Shown here piece after piece: positions 8,783 to 51,550 of a stretch of 64,000 nucleotides of DNA. This DNA is from Cladosporium halotolerans (taxonomy: Eukaryota), in contig NW_027191457.1 of assembly GCF_011745625.1 (NCBI RefSeq), positions 682,001 through 746,000 on the forward strand, given 5' to 3'. Both the position numbers and the translations under genes were made by a program. How positions within the stretch are numbered: the stretch's first letter is position 1; each line of letters starts with the position of its first letter. Under the pieces are notes generated by a model. It was given only the letters and a program-made list of their open reading frames with translations, searched no databases and was not told the origin of the DNA.

Positions 8783-9812
8783 GGTTGGAGGTGTTTTGCG
8801 ACGACGATGGGAAGCCGGATGGGGATTAGGTGTCCAGCAGGTCGCGCGATGGTCGATCCGACGGGAAGCTCCTCACAGACGGAATGTACGCTCAGCTAGA
8901 TCCTTTCGCTAGTAGTCGTTCAAATATAAGTCCAGAGAACAGAAATCAGAATACAGTAGGTGGGAGGGTAGGTGTAGTAGTAAAGCAGGACAAATCGAAG
9001 AGCAGCCCCCAAGAAAGCGTCTCGTCTCCCCATCCCACCCCAACCTCCCAATGCGACGCAACGACATCACCGACCTGCCAGGGCCAGGCCAGAACGCCTG
9101 TCGTCACTTGCCGTCCGCTGCAGTGCCCTGCTTGGGCGTTCGGGGCGCGCGTGTCGCCAGCTGCGTGCGTCATCGCGCATCAAGCGCGGGAAGCTCGAAA
9201 GCTTAAACAAAAAAGTAGGTAGCTGGTCCCTTCGATGGACGATCGTTGATCCCTGTCGATGGCAGTGCTGGAAGAAGCCTGCTGGGAGGGAGGGTCTAGC
9301 AATCAAGGGATTGTGCTTCGGTTCCGGGTCTGTGGAAGCCGGAAGGCGCTCGGTTATCGAATTCGACGACCACGGACTTGGGAGCAAAGTGGAGAGATCT
9401 GGTAAACGATTGTTCACTCGTTGTGATCAACGAATACTTAGTTTAGCAGCCTGTTTATCAGCTTGAAATTCGACGGTCACACCTCTGACGACGGGTGAAT
9501 AGAGAGACGACATAATTGTAGAATCGCATTTGTCCATATCGCTCTTGTTATACAAAATCTGTATCATTGCACCTTCCCTCCTCGAAGTCGTATCTTCGTA
9601 GGAGCCTTAGATGTTTTCTAAAAAAGATCGTGATCGTTTTCCACCCTCTCTACCTCCACCACACCACGCCGCAGCAGCAGCCGATATCATACAACCCCAA
9701 CCACCAATCTATCTCAACGCACCCACCAACCGACCACGCTCACGCGCGCCAGCCTCCACCCCTACCCCTTCTATCCCCTCGCCTCAACCTCTCGCAAGAG
9801 AATATGACCACT

Positions 9813-38312: not shown

Positions 38313-38600
38313 AAGCGCGCGGAAGTCGATGGCGTCGACAGGCCCATGACGCTCGCATTCCCGTTGCCGCCGCCGAGCGCAGCGGCCAACGTCTGGACTG
38401 ACACTGTACTACTGTACCTCTCACCACCGACTCACGTCGCCGCTGCGACACAACCACCTCCCACACACTGTTTTTCCCTCGCTACAGAGACACCCACATC
38501 GCTGTCGTTTGCGCAGAGACCGCAACCCTCACTCTCGCCACCCCACCGGCTGGGCGCCCTCGACAACGACTCGGCGGCTTGCACCGCGAAGTGAGCCATC

Positions 38601-40841
38601 ATGGCCGCCACTACCTCTGTCGGCGAGATGTTCCCGCGCATCGCCATGAGAGGAGCGCAACGGAATATGCCCATGCGCCCCATTGCGCCCCTCGCCCGTA
38701 CCCTCCTCTCTGCCCGCCGCTCGGTTTCCACTGCTTCGAACAAGAGCCCGCTTGCTCTGTCTAAAGTCGCCATCAGGTCTCCCATTCTCGGCCAGGTCCA
38801 GCAGCGCACTCTTTTCGGCACCTCTTGGGGAGCATCGGCAAATCGCAACATGCTCGCATACATGGAGCAGACCGCGAATAACAATCCGGCCAGCGCCACT
38901 GCGCAAAATGCCTTCTACTCTGCCTTACTTCGCTCCAACATGCCCGAGATTGTCGTCGAACGCTACAACACTGGACGCTTCGCCACCAACACCGCTTGCG
39001 ACAACGTCTACAAGAAAGCTCTGCAGCAGATCGGCGCGACCGAGAGCGGCGCAGTCGGCAATGGTATTACGCAGACAGGGCAAGGCAACGGGATTAGCAA
39101 CGAACAACTTCAGGCTATTGGACAAGCGGTCGCCGCAAAGCACTCTGGCGGCAATGTTGGAGTTACTGCTCGCGCTGGATCTGGAAACAAATCGGAACCC
39201 CTCCACGTCGTGGTTGACGAGAGCCTAGGCGCCTTTGTCTTCAGGATGGTCAAGTTCATTCTCATCTTCGGTTTTGTCGTCTACGTCGGTCTTGTCATCT
39301 TCACTCTTCTCGTTGAAGCTCTTGGTTTCATGAAGAAGACTGGAGGCGCACAGAATGCCGAGACCAAGCCTGAGCTGCAGACCACTCGGTTTGCCGATGT
39401 TCACGGTTGCGACGAGGCGAAGGAGGAGCTTCAGGAGCTTGTTGAGTTCTTGAAGTCCCCGGAGAGCTTCAGCACGCTTGGCGGCAAGATGCCGAAAGGT
39501 GTCTTGCTGGCTGGACCCCCTGGTACTGGTAAAACACTCCTGGCTCGCGCCGTTGCCGGCGAGGCTCAGGTCCCCTTCTTCTATATGTCTGGCTCCGAGT
39601 TCGACGAGGTCTACGTCGGTGTTGGTGCGAAGCGCGTCCGCGAGCTTTTCGCCAACGCGCGCACGAAGAGCCCTGCTATCATCTTCATCGACGAGTTGGA
39701 CGCGGTGGGAAGCAAGCGCCACGAGCGCGACGCAGCTTACGCCAAGCAGACCTTGAACCAGCTACTCACCGAATTGGACGGCTTTGAACAGAACTCCGGC
39801 GTTATTATCATTGGCGCGACAAACTTCCCCGAATCTCTCGACAAGGCTCTTACTCGCCCTGGCCGTTTCGACCGCAACGTTGCCGTTTCCTTGCCTGATG
39901 TCCGTGGCCGCATCTCTATCCTCAAGCACCACCTCAAGAACATCAAGTTTGACACCGACGTTGACGCCTCGATCATCGCACGCGGTACCCCTGGATTCTC
40001 TGGAGCTGAGCTCGAAAGCATTGTCAACCAAGCCGCTGTTCATGCATCTAAGCGCAAGGCCGCTCAGGTCTCTCTAGAAGACATGGTTTGGGCCAAGGAC
40101 AAGATCATGATGGGTGCGGAGCGTCGCAGTGCTGTGATTCAAGAGAAGGACAAGATCATGACCGCATACCACGAGGGTGGCCACGCCCTCGTTGCTCTCC
40201 TCACTGAAGGTTGCGATCCTCTCTACAAAGCCACTATCATGCCTCGCGGTCACGCTCTTGGTATCACTTTCCAGCTTCCCGAAATGGACAAGGTCAGCGA
40301 GACCAAGAAGGGTCTCGAGGCGCGCATTGACGTGTGCATGGGCGGCAAGGTTGCCGAGCAGCTCATTTACGGTGATGATGGCGTTTCTACGGGCGCTTCG
40401 AGCGACATCCAGCAGGCGACCAACCTGGCCTACCACATGGTGACCCAGGCGGGTATGAGTGAATTGCTCGGTAACATTGACCTTGCGACTAACTACAACC
40501 GTTTGTCAACCGAGACCAAGAAGCAAATCGAGACTGAGGTTCGCCGCATTATCGAAGCCGGCAAGGACCGCGCTACGAAGCTGCTTACGGAGAAGCGCAC
40601 AGAACTCGACAGGCTGGCCACCGCCTTGGTCGAGTACGAGACCCTTGATAAAGAAGAGATGGAAAAGGTGATTAGAGGCGAGAAGCTCCCCAATAAGCTA
40701 AAGGCCAGCTCGGACACACCGGTCAAGCTTCCCGGCGTGCCTTTGCCGCCAGCCATCGGAGTTCCGCCACCCGTCGGTGGACAGCCTGGCGGTCAAGGCG
40801 GTGGTGACGTTCCGAGACCATACCCTGCCGGCAACCCTTAG
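38601..40841 (+). CDS. YME1: Mitochondrial i-AAA protease Yme1 (FtsH family), 746 aa
   Basis: Arg-rich presequence, one [29 protein letters not shown] zinc motif. Confidence 0.96.
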
Positions 40842-44014: not shown

Positions 44015-45534
44015 ATGGCTGAAGTCGAAGCGCAACCAGGCCAGTTGCTAAAGCAAACTTTGATTGCCAATGCGACACTCGAGGCCAGCAGGCGGACAGC
44101 CGCGAATAGCGAGAGTGAGGAATTGCTCGATCCAAAAACGACCGATCGTCGATACTGGCGTGATCCGCACAGCGGTACGCAGCGGGAGATATGGCGTCCA
44201 GGTAAGGCTTGTCCAGCGCATGATGATGTTTTAGCAAAAACTAACCAACAGCAGGGGACGGCGATGGCGACATTGAGCATGATCACTTCGAACGTAAGGG
44301 TCCAGTAGCTCCACTAGACAAGCGCTGGCGCCTTTATCAGGTCAGTCATACTGCGGTTCTCCCCTCGGGCCCTCGCAGCGTCCATTCTCCCGGCAAAATT
44401 TTGCCTGCATCCGAGAACGCATATCAAGTGCTAACCATGCCACAGCTATCGCCTGGTCCGTTCACTGCTCGCATTAACGAGCCGCCAAGCAATGTCATCC
44501 TCGATGACCGCGCCGTTTGGGAGATTCTCAACTCGAACATCCCACGCGCCCAACTTGCAAAGCGATGGTCGCACGATTTCAGCGGCCAGGCGAACATCCG
44601 TCATCGCCGTCCTCATCGTGGCCGAGCGGCCGTCAAAGACGAGGATGCCGAAGCTGAGACCGACAAGTACCACTCCTTCAAGACCAGCAACAGCGCGAAG
44701 GTACCACCGTACTACTTCTTTGGCGAAAAGGACTTCACGCCTATTTTCTACCAAGAACTTCCGCGCGCGGCAGAAGAATCCGAGCCCATCGACGACACAC
44801 CTGAAAAGCCGAAACAACACAATCAGTACACTGCTCCCGAACTCCTCGTTCGTAACGGGGCGCAATCCGCAAGCTTGACTAAAGGCAAATACCGCCCTCG
44901 CGTCAATACCTTCCTCCGACGCAGCCCGAGCCCTCCCTGGGTCAAAGACAGGAGCAGGCTATTTGGCGGTATTGGTATCGGTAGAGGACCCGTGACCGCA
45001 CCAGTTACACCGGGCGGATTCGATTTCAGCTTTGCTTCTGCCACCGCACCTATTGGTGCAGCTGCAGCTAAGGAAAGCATGTGGGTGGAGCAGGACGACG
45101 AGCCGGAACAAGAAGAACCTGAAGAGGACGAGGACGGCGAATTCTCCAGCATCTTCGACGTGACCCTCTCGGGCGGGGCATCGGGGAGCGGTGTGGATTC
45201 ATCAACACCAATGGCCCAGGCAGCTATGCGTAAGCGCCGAGCTTCTCCGAGCCACTTCTTTAACCGAACCAAACGCCCCAGACAAATGGGCTACATTGAG
45301 CGTCTCGCGGCCGGAATATCTGAACAAGATGCAATCGCTGAGGCGAATGCCAGATTCGAGGAGGCGACTCAGCAAGCCAATGTCGAGAACAACAATGAGG
45401 ATGTCAACCAGCTCAGGTCAGAGCTCGAAGCTGCCAACAACGCCATCATCGAAAAAGACGATGAGATCGCGCTTCTCAAGGCACAAGTCGAGAGCATGCA
45501 GGCGCAGATGGCACCTGTGGCAGAGGATGATTGA
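44015..45534 (+). CDS. Hypothetical protein with acidic tract, NLS-like RKRR and C-terminal coiled coil; introns 44202-44254 (or -44251) and 44341-44445
   Basis: Canonical introns (GTAAGG...CTAAC...CAG; GTCAGT...CTAAC...CAG) join three ORF pieces in frame. Confidence 0.72.
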
Positions 45535-45663
45535 AGGATGAGGTGTCACAAGGCATAATAGCTCAGGTGCGAGCTCCGGCGGGAAAAACTTCAAGATTGT
45601 CAGATTTTGCTTTTTATCGATGCAAAGTATTGCCCTCCATTTGAGAAATGGCATCACTGCGGA

Positions 45664-47647
45664 CTACCACGCCAGACGACTGCCAGTTCTGCGTTCTCGC
45701 TGTCGAGAGGCTCTGTCCGCTAGCAGGTACATATTACTCTCCAGCGCCCTTAGCAGTGAACGCGAGCGCCCAGTCGTTGTGAGTAGTACCCGAACCACCG
45801 GTCGCTGTTGACCCCTTGCTTGATGATTGTCCGCAGCCGCACGCACAAGGACCTTGATGAGCTCGTTCAGATAAGGGCTGGTGCTGACGTCGTCTAGCCA
45901 TTGTATTCCGTCAATCACGATGAATGTGGTCACGTCAATCTGAGAAATCAACTGCGCGAGTGAATTCAACGCGGTTTCAAACATCGACAAAGTCTCGCTC
46001 GTCATGCCCGTCTTGCCCAAGTTCACGAGGTCGTCGGTGCTGACCCCAAGTGGGACGCCGAGCCTCAGAGGAAGTATCTCAATCAGCTGCCGAATAAGGG
46101 CATATGTCATGGAGATCAGTGCTGCCGCCTCTCTTGTGAGTCCGTTGTTCACCTTCACATCACGAGAGAGTTCACAAAACCAGGAGATAGTCGGCAGACC
46201 GATATCAATTGCATGTCCGACGAAGCTGGCAGCGACTTTGGCCATAGTGCTGAGACCGTGATGGTCTAAAGATGTAGATCCAGCCATAGCAAGTACAGGC
46301 TCATGCCCGTCAGAGACAAACGATCGGAGGCGATTAGAGACCTCTCGGGAGACAGACACTTGTGCCCCGAGCTCCACATGACGTCTGATTTGGTGGGAGT
46401 CGAAGTGTAGCTCGAGGTCGCGGGAAGCTGCCAGATATTCCTCCCTGCCGACGGAGCCCTGCAGCGCGAGTCTAGTGGGCGATGCTTCGACTGGGTTGAT
46501 AGGGCTGTACATTTCGTCTTCCGGCTTGACTGCGAGAATCTTTCTCTGTTCGATCCACTCAACTGCTCGCCCTTCTAGGAGTTCCACCATGTGGCTTACT
46601 ATAAACGCCGCCAGCGATTCCATTTTCTCAGGACTCTCCAGCAATAGAGTCTGCTTCCGGCGCTCATCGTTCGCAATCCTTTGCTCAAGTTTACGAACGG
46701 AGTCCTGCAGCTCTGCAGTCTCTCCAGCACGATCACTGGTAAAGGCCCTCAAATCAGCGTTGATCTGTTCGACGGTCAATCGAGTCACGCGCTGCTCTGC
46801 TGAGAGACCCATGTCACTCCGGTGCTTGATCTGGTTGGCGATCACCCTTATGTCCGACAGCTGCTCCTTGAAGTCTTCGTAAAAGTCCTGGCGGAGCGAC
46901 CGCAAGATGCGCTTCCACTGCTTGTCAAGATACCACTCCATGGTATCTTTGAGGAAGAGGAAGATGTGAGCGTACAGGTTGGCGATGAGCATCTGGACTC
47001 CTTCCGTGTCGTACAAATGACGGACCATCTTGCACTCTGCGACGATATTCGTCAGCTCACTCAGACTTCTGGAAAGCCCGAGAGCGATGGTTTCGTGGTT
47101 GACGCTTGCTCTGATTATCGAGTTGAGAGTCCCGGTGAACAGCGACACATATTCACTACCGGCCGGCAGTAACTCCAGCAAGTTGGAATGCGAGTTGAGC
47201 TCCGCGCAGAATTTGTGGAAATACTGTTTGGTCCGTCCATACTTGCCACTCTTGCGGTCACTTTCCCATTTGGCGGACATCTCAGCTATGAACTGCACGA
47301 TGTCGTTGACGTTAGGCGCCGGCTGATTCGCTTTGATAAGATGTCTTGCCCCTAGTCGCTCTTGGAATTCCTTCCATGCCTTGAACAGACGCACTCCCTC
47401 TGCACGTAAAGATGCACGCTGGAGCTCCCTAAGCCTCGTCAGTTCCGGTTTCTAGCCCATCAAAGAAAGTATGGCGATACTCTGCACTCGGCTGCCAGGT
47501 CTCGAAATACGCCTGCCAATCACGTTTGACGTTCTGATCAGGCTGAGCAGTGCCCGAGATGATGTGTTTGAGCTGACTTCCGTGTGGATCTTCCATATTG
47601 GAGCTGAAAGATCGGACTAAGGCTTGCGGTGAGAAGACTTCCTCCAT
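45664..47647 (-). CDS. Truncated STAND/NACHT-like protein: helical N-terminal domain, coiled coil, degenerate P-loop; intron 47429-47480
   Basis: Intron GTATCG...CTGAC...TAG restores frame (SAE|ELQRASLRAEGVRLF); NACHT-like SWFC, ALIRQL, FIVIDG, VLLTT; no GxxGxGK[ST]. Confidence 0.75.
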
Positions 47648-47950
47648 TTTGGTGTATGGACATGTGCGAGTGGAGAAGTAGTCTTGAGGTTGTAGGAGAT
47701 TTGATAAAAGCTGGTGTGTGTGATGGACTGAACCTCTCGCATCAGCTCGCATCTTGGAAGCTCGTACGGCCAACGACAGTGCAAAGATATCATACCACAG
47801 CTAAGCCTGTAGCACGGTGGATGGAGCTGAAAATGTACGTATCGTCTCGGCTAAGGTGGATTGCTTGAGGATTGCTTTTTAACCCCTCTCATCGCCCAGC
47901 CTGCTTGCCTGAAAGGCTGAACAGCTACGTCGCAGTCTCAGTTCCAAAAG

Positions 47951-50399
47951 ATGGCCCCAACACGACGGTTAGCTAGCGGCGGAAGGCGTATAGATTATTA
48001 TGATAGCCTTACACCATACGATGCGCAACCGCCCTTTATGCCTTCTGAACCCGACAGGCTTGTCGCAAAATACGTCGTGCAGCTCCCGGAACAAATTGCC
48101 GAAGATGAAACCGAAGAGGAAAAGGAGGCCGCAGAAGTCCCTGCACCTATATCATATCGTTCCGAGTTCAGACAACAGGGACAGACTATCTACACCTTCA
48201 ACACGGAAAAGCCGGTGTCGGAGTTCGCAAAGAGCGTGGGAGACATCGCTTCGGTCTTTGAAGTTGTCACCGAGTTCGATTGTGATCGCTCAGAAATGAC
48301 CTACATGGAATCAGCAAAGCCGGTCTTTTACATTGGATCTTTGCAGGGCCGGCGAAGATTGGACATTCGGTCACCAGCGATCGTCCGTGCCTTACAAAAG
48401 GTCGTTACTTATTGGCCAGGGTGTGATCTGAGCACGGAGGTCGTCCAAGTTGGTGAGCCATATCGACTTCTGGTGCATCACAGCAAAGAACTGCAGCAAT
48501 ATCAGGAAAGATCTTCTGCTTTGGTCGAGAAATGTGTGAACGAGATCAACGCGAATGAGCACCTCAGCCTACTGAAGGACTACCTCACCCAGAACATAAT
48601 GCCGGAAATCGAACTGGAACTTGAGAGGAGCAGCCGTGGGTTCGCGACCTTCGAATACCTGTGGCTTCTCTTGAAACCGGGCACCGAAGTGGTTGTCAAG
48701 GCTGTGGAATCAGCGCGAAGCTTCATTCCATATCGGTGTGGTCGTGTTGTCAAGAGTGTTGAAGGGGGCCCAGGCGAATATAAAGGCGGCAAGGTGCGAT
48801 CGTGGGAAATCAAGCTTTACTTTTTGTGCAACACTGGCTCGACCCTCGAGATTGTCAATGAAATACGAATGATCGAGGCGTTCGAAGGGGAGCGTGAGGT
48901 GACCTCTCTCGATATCGTCCCAGCCAATTGGCCAGGCCACCTTGTCGATGGAAAACCCTGGACAAGCATCTTGCAAGAACAGGGGAGGAAGACATTTGCC
49001 TTGGCAACCCCTCAATGCGCGCAACACACGGGTAAGGCTTCGGAATTCCCACATGATGAGCTCGACGGTCTAGTCATGATTGACATGAAGGCGTTCTATG
49101 CTCAATGTCCGGAAAAGCGACCCAAGGGTGAGCCGCTGGAGCAGCAGACCTCTGGAATACCGCATTGTGACTGCCCGACATGCATCAAGCGATCGGAAAA
49201 GCGACCAGAATCGCATCTCCACAGCTACACACATATCAAGATCGGGAAGAGCACCTTGATGGATCACCAAGCATTCATATACTCCACGTCTATATTTGGA
49301 TTCCACTTCAGGACCCGATCTTGGGAGCACATCGACGTTGCAAATCTTACACCCGCACAGTTCCAGACAGACATCCTTGACACATCATTGGTCATGAAAG
49401 CTCAAAGAACTAACATGCTCAAAGCGCTGTCCAAAAAATACATGCGGTCTGCAGATGAAGTCAGTATGCAACGGGCAGAATTCTGGTCCGCCGACTTCAT
49501 CGAAGGCAAGGGGAAGAGCCAGATCATTCTCCTACATGGAAGACCCGGGGTTGGAAAGACCTACACTGCGGAGTGCATCGCAGAGTACACGCGACGGCCT
49601 CTCCTGACTTTGACTTCCGCGGACATTGGAACGTCAAGTGAATATGTTGAAGACAACCTCATGTTCCACTTCACGCAGGCCCGCGACTGGGGAGCAATTG
49701 TCCTTATCGACGAGGCGGATATCTACATGGAGGTATGTCCGGAATTTAAGTGACATCAGAGAAGGATTCGGACACTTACTCGGCTGTGATAGCGGCGGTC
49801 AAACAACGATCTCGACCGCAATGGCCTCGTCGCCGGCTTTCTTCGCGCCCTCGAGACTTTCGAAGGCATGCTTTTCCTCACGACCAACCGCGTCGGCGCC
49901 TTCGACGATGATTTCACCTCGCGCATCCATGTCAAGCTTTACTATCCACCATTGCAGAATGACGACCGCCAGAAGATCTGGGAAACCTTCATCAAGAAAT
50001 TGAGCCGGGAACGCATGAAGAGTATCCGCGTCACAGTGGGCGCCAAAGAGTACATCAAAGGGCCAGCAATCCGAAATCTCGACCTCAACGGCCGAGAAAT
50101 CCGAAACGCCTTCCAGACTGCCGTTGCTTTGGCGGAGCATGAGCAAGTGCTTGATGAGGAAGGCACTATATGTGTCCAAGAGCATCACATCGAGCAGGTC
50201 GCCGACATGACGCGCGAATTCCAAGTTTATTTGGACGAACTTCACGGTAAGTACAATGCTAGAAGGAGGTATCATTTGGTGGGATAGCCAACTAATGTGC
50301 AACTTAGAGGGAAATGAAGGAAAGCGTGCCAAGAGAGTCTTTGAAAGAAGCGACCAGGCAGTTGATGCTTCCGGCGGAGCGGAAGGCAAGAGAACTTGA
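47951..50399 (+). CDS. Fungal-type AAA+ ATPase with long N-terminal region; introns 49733-49792 and 50247-50307
   Basis: Walker A LHGRPGVGKT, Walker B VLIDEAD, FLTTNR, SRIH, LNGREIRNAFQTAVALA; both introns frame-restoring. Confidence 0.9.
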
Positions 50400-50728
50400 A
50401 CGTGAACGCATCGAACCTAACGAGCGATCATGTCTTCTTTTTCCATACGATCCATAACGAGATTAACGACGCCACAACTTTTGCATGACCTCTTCACTAG
50501 GTCTGCGTTCGAATGATCCCACCCTAGTCACCAGTCCTTCGTTTTCCAGTCTAATAATGTGCATAAAGATCGCGAAACCTACCCAAACTTGCATGTGATG
50601 TTGAAGCAGAGGCGGGCGCCGGAAATTGATCTGTCGATCGGTCAGTCAAATGGCGGTTTACTCTCCATTCATCCACCCATCCATCAACTCATCAGTCGAT
50701 TAGTCGATCAATTCTGGAAAATGGGCTG

Positions 50729-50769
<41 letters not shown>

Positions 50770-50772
50770 ATT
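50729..50772. repeat. (GATT)n microsatellite, 8 perfect plus 3 further units
   Basis: Read directly. Confidence 0.95.
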
Positions 50773-51550
50773 GCCCGTTTCCGCCGTGAAAGCAACACCA
50801 CCACACGCAAACCCTGATCCGTCAAAACCGTCCCCTCACAGGCGAAAGACGTGTCCGAGCTACGATCTGGATCGTACTATACCGCTTCCCATCTACATCA
50901 AGCCGCAGCACTTCTTGCTGGCGACACGAGCTCAAGAGCACCGCGACGAGTCTCCGGGACGACCTTGACGGGTCTCGGCTTTCGCCCGGTTGGCAAGTTT
51001 TCAACCTCAAGAAACTGGGCCCTATCAGACCTACCAGAGGCAATATCACTGGGGAAACCATGAAAAACCGCGGAGCAGGCGTCTTCATGCCACGAGCGAG
51101 TCTCATTATCCAATCTCTTTCCATGCATAGTTTGACCTAGGACACGCATGCTGATGCTATTCTTCTCTCCACAATCGAACGTCCTCAGTCAACCGACGGA
51201 CCGATACTTGTCCTCCATCATACGATATGGTCACCTCCAATCACCTGCTCATTCTCAACCCCCCTCACTCTCCAATCCGAATCTGAAACGAACACTTTTG
51301 TCTACCCGCAACCCCAGCCGACACAAAATCGCCAGCAAGAACGTAAAGTAAAATACTCTTCGTTGTTTTCCACCAGGGACGTACATTTCTCCGCTACTCT
51401 TACAATCAGCACACCTCACCACCCACCCACAACTCCGCCTCCACACATCCAAACCCAACCCGAGAAAAGTAAAGTGAACAAACAAGCTCCAGGCCCGCCC
51501 GCCCTCCGCGACCAGCGCTCTTTCCTCCCCCTCAATCTGCCGCGCAGCCC

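Follow-up and report, generated by a model that had tools for sequence, protein, structure and literature searches.

Head-to-head pairs of plant NOD-like receptors (NLRs), namely RRS1/RPS4 and RGA5/RGA4, include a sensor whose P-loop is dispensable. Canonical fungal NLRs carry a DUF7708 or Goodbye-like domain at the N-terminus, followed by a nucleotide-binding domain of the NPHP3_N/NACHT type and by ANK, WD40 or TPR repeats. In the fungal het-S/nwd2 pair, the two genes are clustered and divergently transcribed (PMC3321046, in the part of that text available). Here we describe a divergent gene pair in a 64,000-nucleotide stretch of the Cladosporium halotolerans genome (assembly GCF_011745625.1, contig NW_027191457.1, positions 682,001 to 746,000), which we refer to as the window. 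The minus-strand gene (45664–47647) encodes a DUF7708 protein of 643 residues with the shell of a NACHT domain, and the plus-strand gene encodes an AAA+ ATPase of 775 residues. The start codons at 47647 (−) and 47951 (+) are 303 bp apart, exactly as the initial annotation of this DNA had placed them. We read the two genes as a conserved, NLR-derived two-gene module of filamentous ascomycetes, and put the probability that they are functionally linked at about 0.75.

The minus-strand protein shares with canonical fungal NLRs the N-terminal Pfam domain and a homologous nucleotide-binding fold, including the strand before the P-loop and the FC, YxLIRQL, hhhhDG and TTGRS motifs, and its neighbours in the Atlas carry DUF7708, NPHP3_N and NACHT together. 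Unlike them, it has no GK[ST], no acidic pair, no arm and no repeats, and is paired with a separate AAA+ gene. The plant pairs resemble the locus in being divergent, with one member of the STAND type (signal transduction ATPases with numerous domains) that does not use its own P-loop and another that would supply the activity. In the window, however, the active member would be an AAA+ protein of the classical clade and not a second NLR, the dead member lacks the whole arm and sensor, and homology is limited to the P-loop fold. With het-S/nwd2 and other clustered NLR–effector pairs the locus has in common a divergent NLR-type gene and a partner retained together across species (PMC3321046 and PMC9815663, in the parts of these texts available). 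It differs in that the NLR-type N-terminus and the partner share no motif, the partner is an AAA+ ATPase and not a pore-former, and the NLR-type member has neither an active NTPase nor a sensor. No description of the pair or of the family to which the minus-strand protein belongs was found in the literature text searched, some 8.4 million papers and preprints in which DUF7708, DUF7025, PF24809, PF22942 and AAA_lid_13 go unmentioned. The available parts of two NLR surveys (PMC12258605 and PMC9815663) likewise mention neither family nor pair; the supplementary neighbour tables of PMC9815663, which cover NLRs with short N-termini, might bear on it.

The minus-strand protein and its family

Pfam matched DUF7708 in the minus-strand protein at 91.1 bits, against a gathering score of 25, and gave only a weak AAA_16 match (E=0.0088) over the Walker-B region. 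An AlphaFold2 model of the 589 residues encoded by exon 2, built from a 15-sequence alignment, had a mean predicted local distance difference test score (pLDDT) of 73.7. Its first ~300 residues were modelled entirely as helices, two of them ~47 and ~64 residues long, and led through a low-confidence linker into a five-stranded α/β domain at residues ~355–585. Foldseek returned nothing at E≤1e-3 for this model, and its top rows were all P-loop proteins of the ORC/Cdc6/STAND kind. VIA-align gave Z scores of 12.2 to MalT (8bob_C; root mean square deviation 3.4, 182 residues aligned) and 11.4 to archaeal Orc1. Further scores were 11.2 for the wheat G10 resistosome, 10.9 for ZAR1 and 10.2 for CED-4. 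A fold search independent of Foldseek gave Z 12.4 to the bacterial STAND protein Avs3 (8dgc_A), followed by the same families.

At the sequence level, the family profile found nothing under E=0.4 among PDB sequences. Pfam searches of 41 family members at E≤0.01 matched DUF7708 in all 41, NPHP3_N in 18 and AAA_16 in eight. The NPHP3_N gathering score of 24.8 was exceeded by two Colletotrichum homologues (P0012, 30.0 bits; P0013, 28.9 bits), and the Cryoendolithus orthologue fell narrowly under it at 22.4 bits. These NPHP3_N matches, together with the STAND/ORC fold matches, indicate that the C-terminal domain is a NACHT-type nucleotide-binding domain by descent. The STAND/NACHT ancestry proposed in the initial annotation is thus borne out, as is its description of a helical N-terminal region followed by the landmarks SWFC, ALIRQL, FIVIDG and VLLTT, all of which are present in the protein and conserved in its homologues.

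Several defining parts of such a domain have been lost. At the Walker A position stands LAMAGSTSLDHHGLST, which lacks GK[ST]. The acidic pair of NACHT domains (hhhhDGhDE) is also missing, the invariant Asp-Gly being followed by IQW in the window and by [LIF][QH]W in most members. Beyond the sensor-1-like strand VLLTTTGRS only some 35 residues follow, modelled as just a short helix and a strand, and the protein therefore has neither a helical/winged-helix arm nor sensor repeats. Neither the window protein nor any of the 41 members gave a Pfam match to a repeat family (ANK, WD40, TPR or HEAT). A Walker A without GK[ST] and a protein without repeats had both been noted from the letters of the window, and the alignment of homologues and Pfam agree. 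Because Walker A, acidic pair, arm and repeats were each looked for and found wanting, the protein stands outside the NLR/STAND family functionally and is a derivative of that family.

A word-indexed search retrieved 15 relatives of 398–690 residues. An exhaustive profile search, in which family representatives are clusters at 50% identity, retrieved 2527 at E≤1e-3, of which 1593 also passed E≤1e-10 and 543 passed E≤1e-30. Lengths among the best 150 of these matches were 168–753 residues, and most alignments ran through the end of the profile; these matches thus share the truncated architecture. The pattern GxxxxGK[ST] occurred nowhere in 160 family sequences, and none had GK[ST] at the aligned Walker A position; the Walker-B Asp-Gly, YALIRQL and TTGRS were conserved despite the loss of the P-loop. 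All homologues came from Ascomycota. Named members belonged to Dothideomycetes (Cryoendolithus, Rachicladosporium, Cladosporium, Bathelium, Rhizodiscina and Lindgomyces) and to Sordariomycetes (Colletotrichum, Xylaria, Podospora, Cladorrhinum, Magnaporthiopsis, Neoarthrinium, Neonectria and Dactylonectria), and their database names were hypothetical or apparently misassigned ('phytanoyl-dioxygenase', 'carboxylic ester hydrolase'). A scan of a prokaryote genome collection and of viral contigs with family alignment A1 found no relative.

Many full-length members carry a tail motif, [LIV]VRx[FY]S, within their first ~20 residues, which in the window corresponds to exon 1; closer relatives add WxxYFEPW about 35 residues further on. 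Compared with contigs of related strains, the minus-strand gene of the window showed nine synonymous and seven non-synonymous differences and the AAA+ gene three and five, small numbers that fit real but not strong constraint. To judge from these alignments, the form without Walker A and repeats is a large conserved family of Pezizomycotina and no decayed gene, and it is not peculiar to this locus, a point absent from the initial annotation.

The AAA+ gene and its retention beside the family

The partner protein matched DUF7025, AAA (PF00004) and AAA_lid_13 in Pfam. The closest solved structures to its ATPase domain were Msp1/ATAD1 (5w0t, E=8.4e-7), VAT, Afg2 and p97, with E values of ~1e-6 to 1e-4. 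Walker A, Walker B, sensor-1 and finger arginine align with those of Msp1/ATAD1, VAT and Cdc48/p97. Among partner orthologues GRPGVGKT, LIDEAD, the sensor-1 TTN and an arginine aligned to the second of the Msp1 finger pair were invariant, and these motifs predict that the partner is very likely an active ATPase. The partner differs from Msp1/ATAD1, VAT and Cdc48/p97 in having no aromatic residue in pore loop 1, in its fungus-specific DUF7025, cysteine cluster and AAA_lid_13, and in lacking a transmembrane anchor and a second ATPase ring. ADIGT occupied the pore-loop-1 position in all orthologues (D558, I559 and G560 invariant), which is unusual for a relative of Msp1 and Cdc48. The full set of AAA+ motifs claimed for this gene was accordingly recovered for ATPase activity but not for pore loop 1.

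The first 500 residues of the partner are peculiar to fungal AAA+ proteins of this type. The model of the exon-1 product was poor (pLDDT 53), and the matches of the DUF7025 barrel reached a Z of 6.3 at best (Lon specificity factor, PWWP/Tudor-like), too low to assign a fold. Four cysteines, C356 and the CxCxxC cluster (window 49016–49183), lie in a stretch left unfolded by the model; they were invariant in every partner orthologue and may form a metal (zinc) site. The deposited model of a Colletotrichum sp. homologue of the AAA+ protein (P0023, 36% identical to that of the window) lacks the Walker A segment, probably through a mis-called intron.

Nine metagenome loci encoded a relative of the minus-strand protein. 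Three of them (L001, L005 and L006) extended more than ~1 kb upstream; the other six began inside the gene or held at most ~330 nt of upstream DNA. L001 carried an AAA+ gene with its ATG at ~9278 (−), head-to-head with the ATG of the DUF7708 gene at 9784 (+), and both proteins were 44–47% identical to those of the window. In L006 (~30% identity) the N-terminal region of an AAA+ protein was found by tblastn (E=5e-14) on the opposite strand, ~600 bp from the DUF7708 gene; the AAA+ gene is cut by the contig end and retains the family blocks VRYR..F, FDIVT and IHSPAIIHAL. The orientation was therefore head-to-head in all three cases with readable DNA (the window, L001 and L006). The third long locus, L005 (4822–10897; 27% identity), had a divergent ankyrin-repeat gene upstream and a phytanoyl-CoA dioxygenase (PhyH) gene downstream, and its protein was nearest to P0082, both being without the N-terminal tail motif. 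The Colletotrichum members named 'phytanoyl-dioxygenase family protein' may reflect a PhyH neighbour of this kind, or a fused gene model.

Among named genomes, the orthologues in Cryoendolithus antarcticus carried consecutive locus tags (B0A48_05374 and B0A48_05373) on contigs equal in size, and those in Rachicladosporium sp. were B0A51_04885 and B0A51_04886. Three further orthologue pairs lay on contigs of equal size (14916, 6944 and 6274 bases). The six pair-bearing lineages were 43–53% identical to one another in both proteins, one close species pair excepted, and the rates of divergence of the two genes were thus alike. In L001 the pair was flanked by genes for a WD40 protein, a sugar transporter, an amidase, a CAF1 nuclease and a tRNA synthetase. 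None of these matches the flanks in the window, which include a Yme1 protease, a prenyltransferase, PIG-V and an alcohol dehydrogenase, and gene order around the pair is thus not retained. The initial annotation had named homologues unlinked in other genomes as the finding that would speak against its proposal; at these loci the pair instead recurs, at ~45% and ~30% identity.

Gene models and features of the locus

Features of the pair are collected in the table below. The 52-nt intron of the minus-strand gene has homology as its sole support: splicing recreates ...WQPSAEELQRASLR..., in agreement with full-length relatives. RNA-Seq metatranscriptome run X16 contained no contig over this gene, and contigs of runs X18–X20, whose RNA label is a guess, covered parts of it and did not cross the intron. 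A 799-nt contig from run X16 had both introns of the AAA+ gene removed exactly, with 0 differences from the window, which confirms the three-exon model and shows that the gene is transcribed and spliced. The intergenic stretch has a GC content of 0.50.

Features of the divergent gene pair (positions in the window; aa, amino acids)
Feature	Position	Strand	Basis or remark
Minus-strand gene, exon 2, stop codon (45664–45666) included	45664..47428	−	Gene model and homologues
Pseudo-nucleotide-binding domain, truncated, STAND/NACHT (NPHP3_N) type	45685..46410	−	Fold matches; NPHP3_N in homologues
Walker-B-like strand FIVIDG; invariant Asp-Gly (D508, G509), then IQW	45907..45924	−	Alignment of homologues
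Walker A position, LAMAGSTSLDHHGLST; first Gly retained, no GK[ST]	46246..46293	−	Alignment of homologues
DUF7708 (PF24809) helical domain	46792..47220	−	E=8.1e-26; aa 72–214 of the translation of 45667–47433
Minus-strand gene, intron, 52 nt, GT..AG	47429..47480	−	Homology; splice restores sequence of full-length homologues
Minus-strand gene, exon 1 (167 nt; 55 codons + 2 nt); tail motif ALVRSFS ... WQAYFETWQP	47481..47647	−	Tail motif seen again in homologues
Shared intergenic region, putative bidirectional promoter	47648..47950	.	Lies between the two divergent start codons
AAA+ gene, exon 1 (594 codons); N-terminal region, DUF7025, Cys cluster, first half of AAA	47951..49732	+	Pfam, alignment, RNA contig
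DUF7025 (PF22942), modelled as small beta-barrel	48626..48925	+	E=1.4e-13
Invariant CxCxxC (C406, C408, C411)	49166..49183	+	Invariant columns among partner orthologues
Walker A, GRPGVGKT	49538..49561	+	Pfam, alignment
Pore-loop-1 position, ADIGT, without aromatic residue	49619..49633	+	Aligned to DKWYGE of Msp1
Walker B, IVLIDEAD	49697..49720	+	Alignment
AAA+ gene, intron 1, 60 nt	49733..49792	+	Joint in RNA-Seq metatranscriptome contig, run X16
AAA+ gene, exon 2; second half of AAA, sensor-1 TTN, Arg in TSRIH (~49880–49930), AAA_lid_13 (49952–50245)	49793..50246	+	PF23232 E=4e-33, RNA contig, Msp1 alignment
AAA+ gene, intron 2, 61 nt	50247..50307	+	Joint in the same X16 contig as intron 1
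AAA+ gene, exon 3, stop codon included	50308..50399	+	RNA contig

The GC content at third codon positions was 0.62 in the minus-strand gene and 0.59 in the plus-strand gene, against 0.55–0.90 in 16 other long open reading frames of the window. The two genes, which had been described as less biased than the genes around them, lie at the low end of this range but are no outliers, the left neighbour also being at 0.59. A search for signs of a mobile element found no repeats or inverted repeats bracketing the pair. A (GATT)n microsatellite occurs at 50721–50781, ~320 bp downstream of the AAA+ stop codon. The housekeeping gene for a Yme1-type i-AAA protease (Yme1-like_N, AAA and Peptidase_M41; 38595–40841) lies 7 kb off and is unrelated to the pair. 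Air, urban and dust metagenome runs held 0.57–0.60 of the words sampled from 45500–50500; these shared words are a lead that air and indoor samples commonly contain strains almost identical to this one.

Readings of the pair

As the genes stay neighbours across distantly related fungi, their products probably act jointly. Several observations weigh against this reading or against parts of it. In L005, tblastn at E≤10 over 7.2 kb of upstream and 10 kb of downstream DNA detected no AAA+ gene, and therefore pairing is no property of the whole family. Consecutive locus tags are silent on orientation, and equal contig sizes are an indirect sign of a shared contig. The pair-bearing lineages may all be related Dothideomycetes, in which case inherited gene order could account for some of the conservation. 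In a mirror-tree test the identities of the two proteins were correlated with r=0.40 (p=0.08) once the close species pair was removed, which is not significant; the phylogeny is star-like. The missing aromatic residue makes pore loop 1 of the partner non-canonical, and therefore weakens the notion of a remodeller that works by threading; the partner could be an active ATPase without being an unfoldase of the threading kind. A role in cell death or non-self responses, whose entire basis is descent from NLR-type domains, we consider rather unlikely. Taken together, we conclude that one large branch of the family keeps the two genes together as a unit and that the pair is not universal in the family.

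The strongest alternative is that the adjacency was merely inherited: the AAA+ protein would be one of many paralogous DUF7025 ATPases, the pseudo-NACHT protein an independent scaffold or regulator, and the intergenic region without joint function. Both named pair-bearing lineages are Dothideomycetes, and the family member in L005 without an AAA gene and the non-significant co-divergence are what this explanation would lead one to expect. It accounts less well for neighbours that persist over six lineages as divergent as those described above and in a relative only ~30% identical, for the same orientation in every readable case, and for L001 flanks wholly unlike those of the window. We regard it as unlikely.

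A second alternative, which overlaps with our own reading, is a conflict or selfish module (toxin–antidote, allorecognition or mobile cargo) whose two genes would be gained together and lost together. In such a module the DUF7708 protein would be a membrane-targeting executioner related to Goodbye, HeLo or MLKL, with the AAA+ protein as its inhibitor or activator. In two genomes the pair does stand as a unit among unrelated housekeeping genes. Both of its members are fast-evolving, with 43–53% identity between lineages, and the non-synonymous share of the strain differences is relatively high (7/16 in the minus-strand gene, 5/8 in the partner). Goodbye-like domains are described as MLKL-related in the available part of PMC9815663, and clustered, divergently transcribed genes are the arrangement of het-S/nwd2-type cell-death pairs (PMC3321046, likewise in part). 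The link to Goodbye, however, consists of an automatic Atlas name on the nearest DUF7708 cluster and nothing else, and no Pfam match to Goodbye, HeLo or HET was obtained at E≤0.01 in the 41 family members. Matches to the P-loop domain took up the fold searches, which thus barely probed the N-terminal half for likeness to a four-helix bundle. Nor is the pair bracketed by repeats, and local alignment of the 70-residue tail with the whole partner in two species pairs revealed no common motif, the score being reached by 86/300 and 163/300 shuffles. Such a module seems improbable, somewhat more so than inherited adjacency.

That the minus-strand gene is a decaying NLR remnant, a truncated pseudogene beside a functional AAA+ gene, would suit the loss of Walker A, acidic pair, arm domains and repeats and the lack of a minus-gene contig in run X16, but is practically excluded by family-wide conservation, the same truncated architecture and C-terminus recurring with invariant motifs in hundreds of 50%-identity clusters from Sordariomycetes and Dothideomycetes, and by an intact 643-residue frame, a clean intron and synonymous changes above the neutral expectation.

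For the two-gene module that we favour, the following course may be proposed. The ancestor of the minus-strand gene would have been a fungal NLR of the DUF7708–NACHT type, from which the Lys/Ser of Walker A and the acidic pair of NACHT disappeared, as did the helical/winged-helix arm and the repeats of the sensor. The present protein retains the N-terminal tail motif, the DUF7708 helical domain, the long helices and a bare pseudo-nucleotide-binding domain. The second gene, a DUF7025-type fungal AAA+ ATPase with its ATPase motifs intact, would be co-regulated with the first from the shared 303-bp region. The two proteins would act together, the AAA+ partner providing in trans the ATP-dependent step for which an NLR ordinarily relies on its own NACHT domain; for direct cooperation of this kind we see slightly less than an even chance. 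The N-terminal DUF7025/Cys region of the partner might bind the pseudo-NLR, perhaps through its LVRxYS tail, and thereby control its assembly or disassembly. The N-terminal domains of other NLRs suggest, by analogy, that cell death or a stress response could be the output.

A strand near the N-terminus of the partner (VRYRAVF; ISYRSEF in the window) loosely resembles the [LIV]VRx[FY]S tail, a likeness that is not significant against shuffled sequences. A complex prediction with full-length P0005 and residues 122–470 of P0020, made without alignments, scored 0.00 and carries no weight either way. In L005 the absence of the tail coincides with the absence of an AAA+ neighbour, a single case that we treat as a lead. 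The most far-reaching version of the proposal is a 'split NLR', a widespread and so far undescribed form of fungal signalling in which an NLR-derived protein with neither switch nor sensor of its own would rely on a separately encoded AAA+ ATPase, inherited along with it, to be activated or reset at the expense of ATP. The LVRxYS tail would serve as a handle for the DUF7025/Cys domain and be present only where the ATPase gene is adjacent. We hold this broad form to be improbable as it stands.

Fungi have many NLR-like proteins, and hardly any of them is understood in its mechanism. A large family in which an NLR N-terminal domain and a NACHT shell survive, minus catalytic residues, arm and sensor, leads one to ask which functions are left to such a protein. 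The conserved AAA+ neighbour offers a testable answer, ATP-dependent control in trans, and the pair is a first functional handle on DUF7708, on DUF7025 and on the AAA_lid_13 ATPases, which are much expanded in fungi. Should a link to cell death or non-self responses hold, it would represent a new architecture among the NLR–partner pairs of fungi, plants and bacteria.

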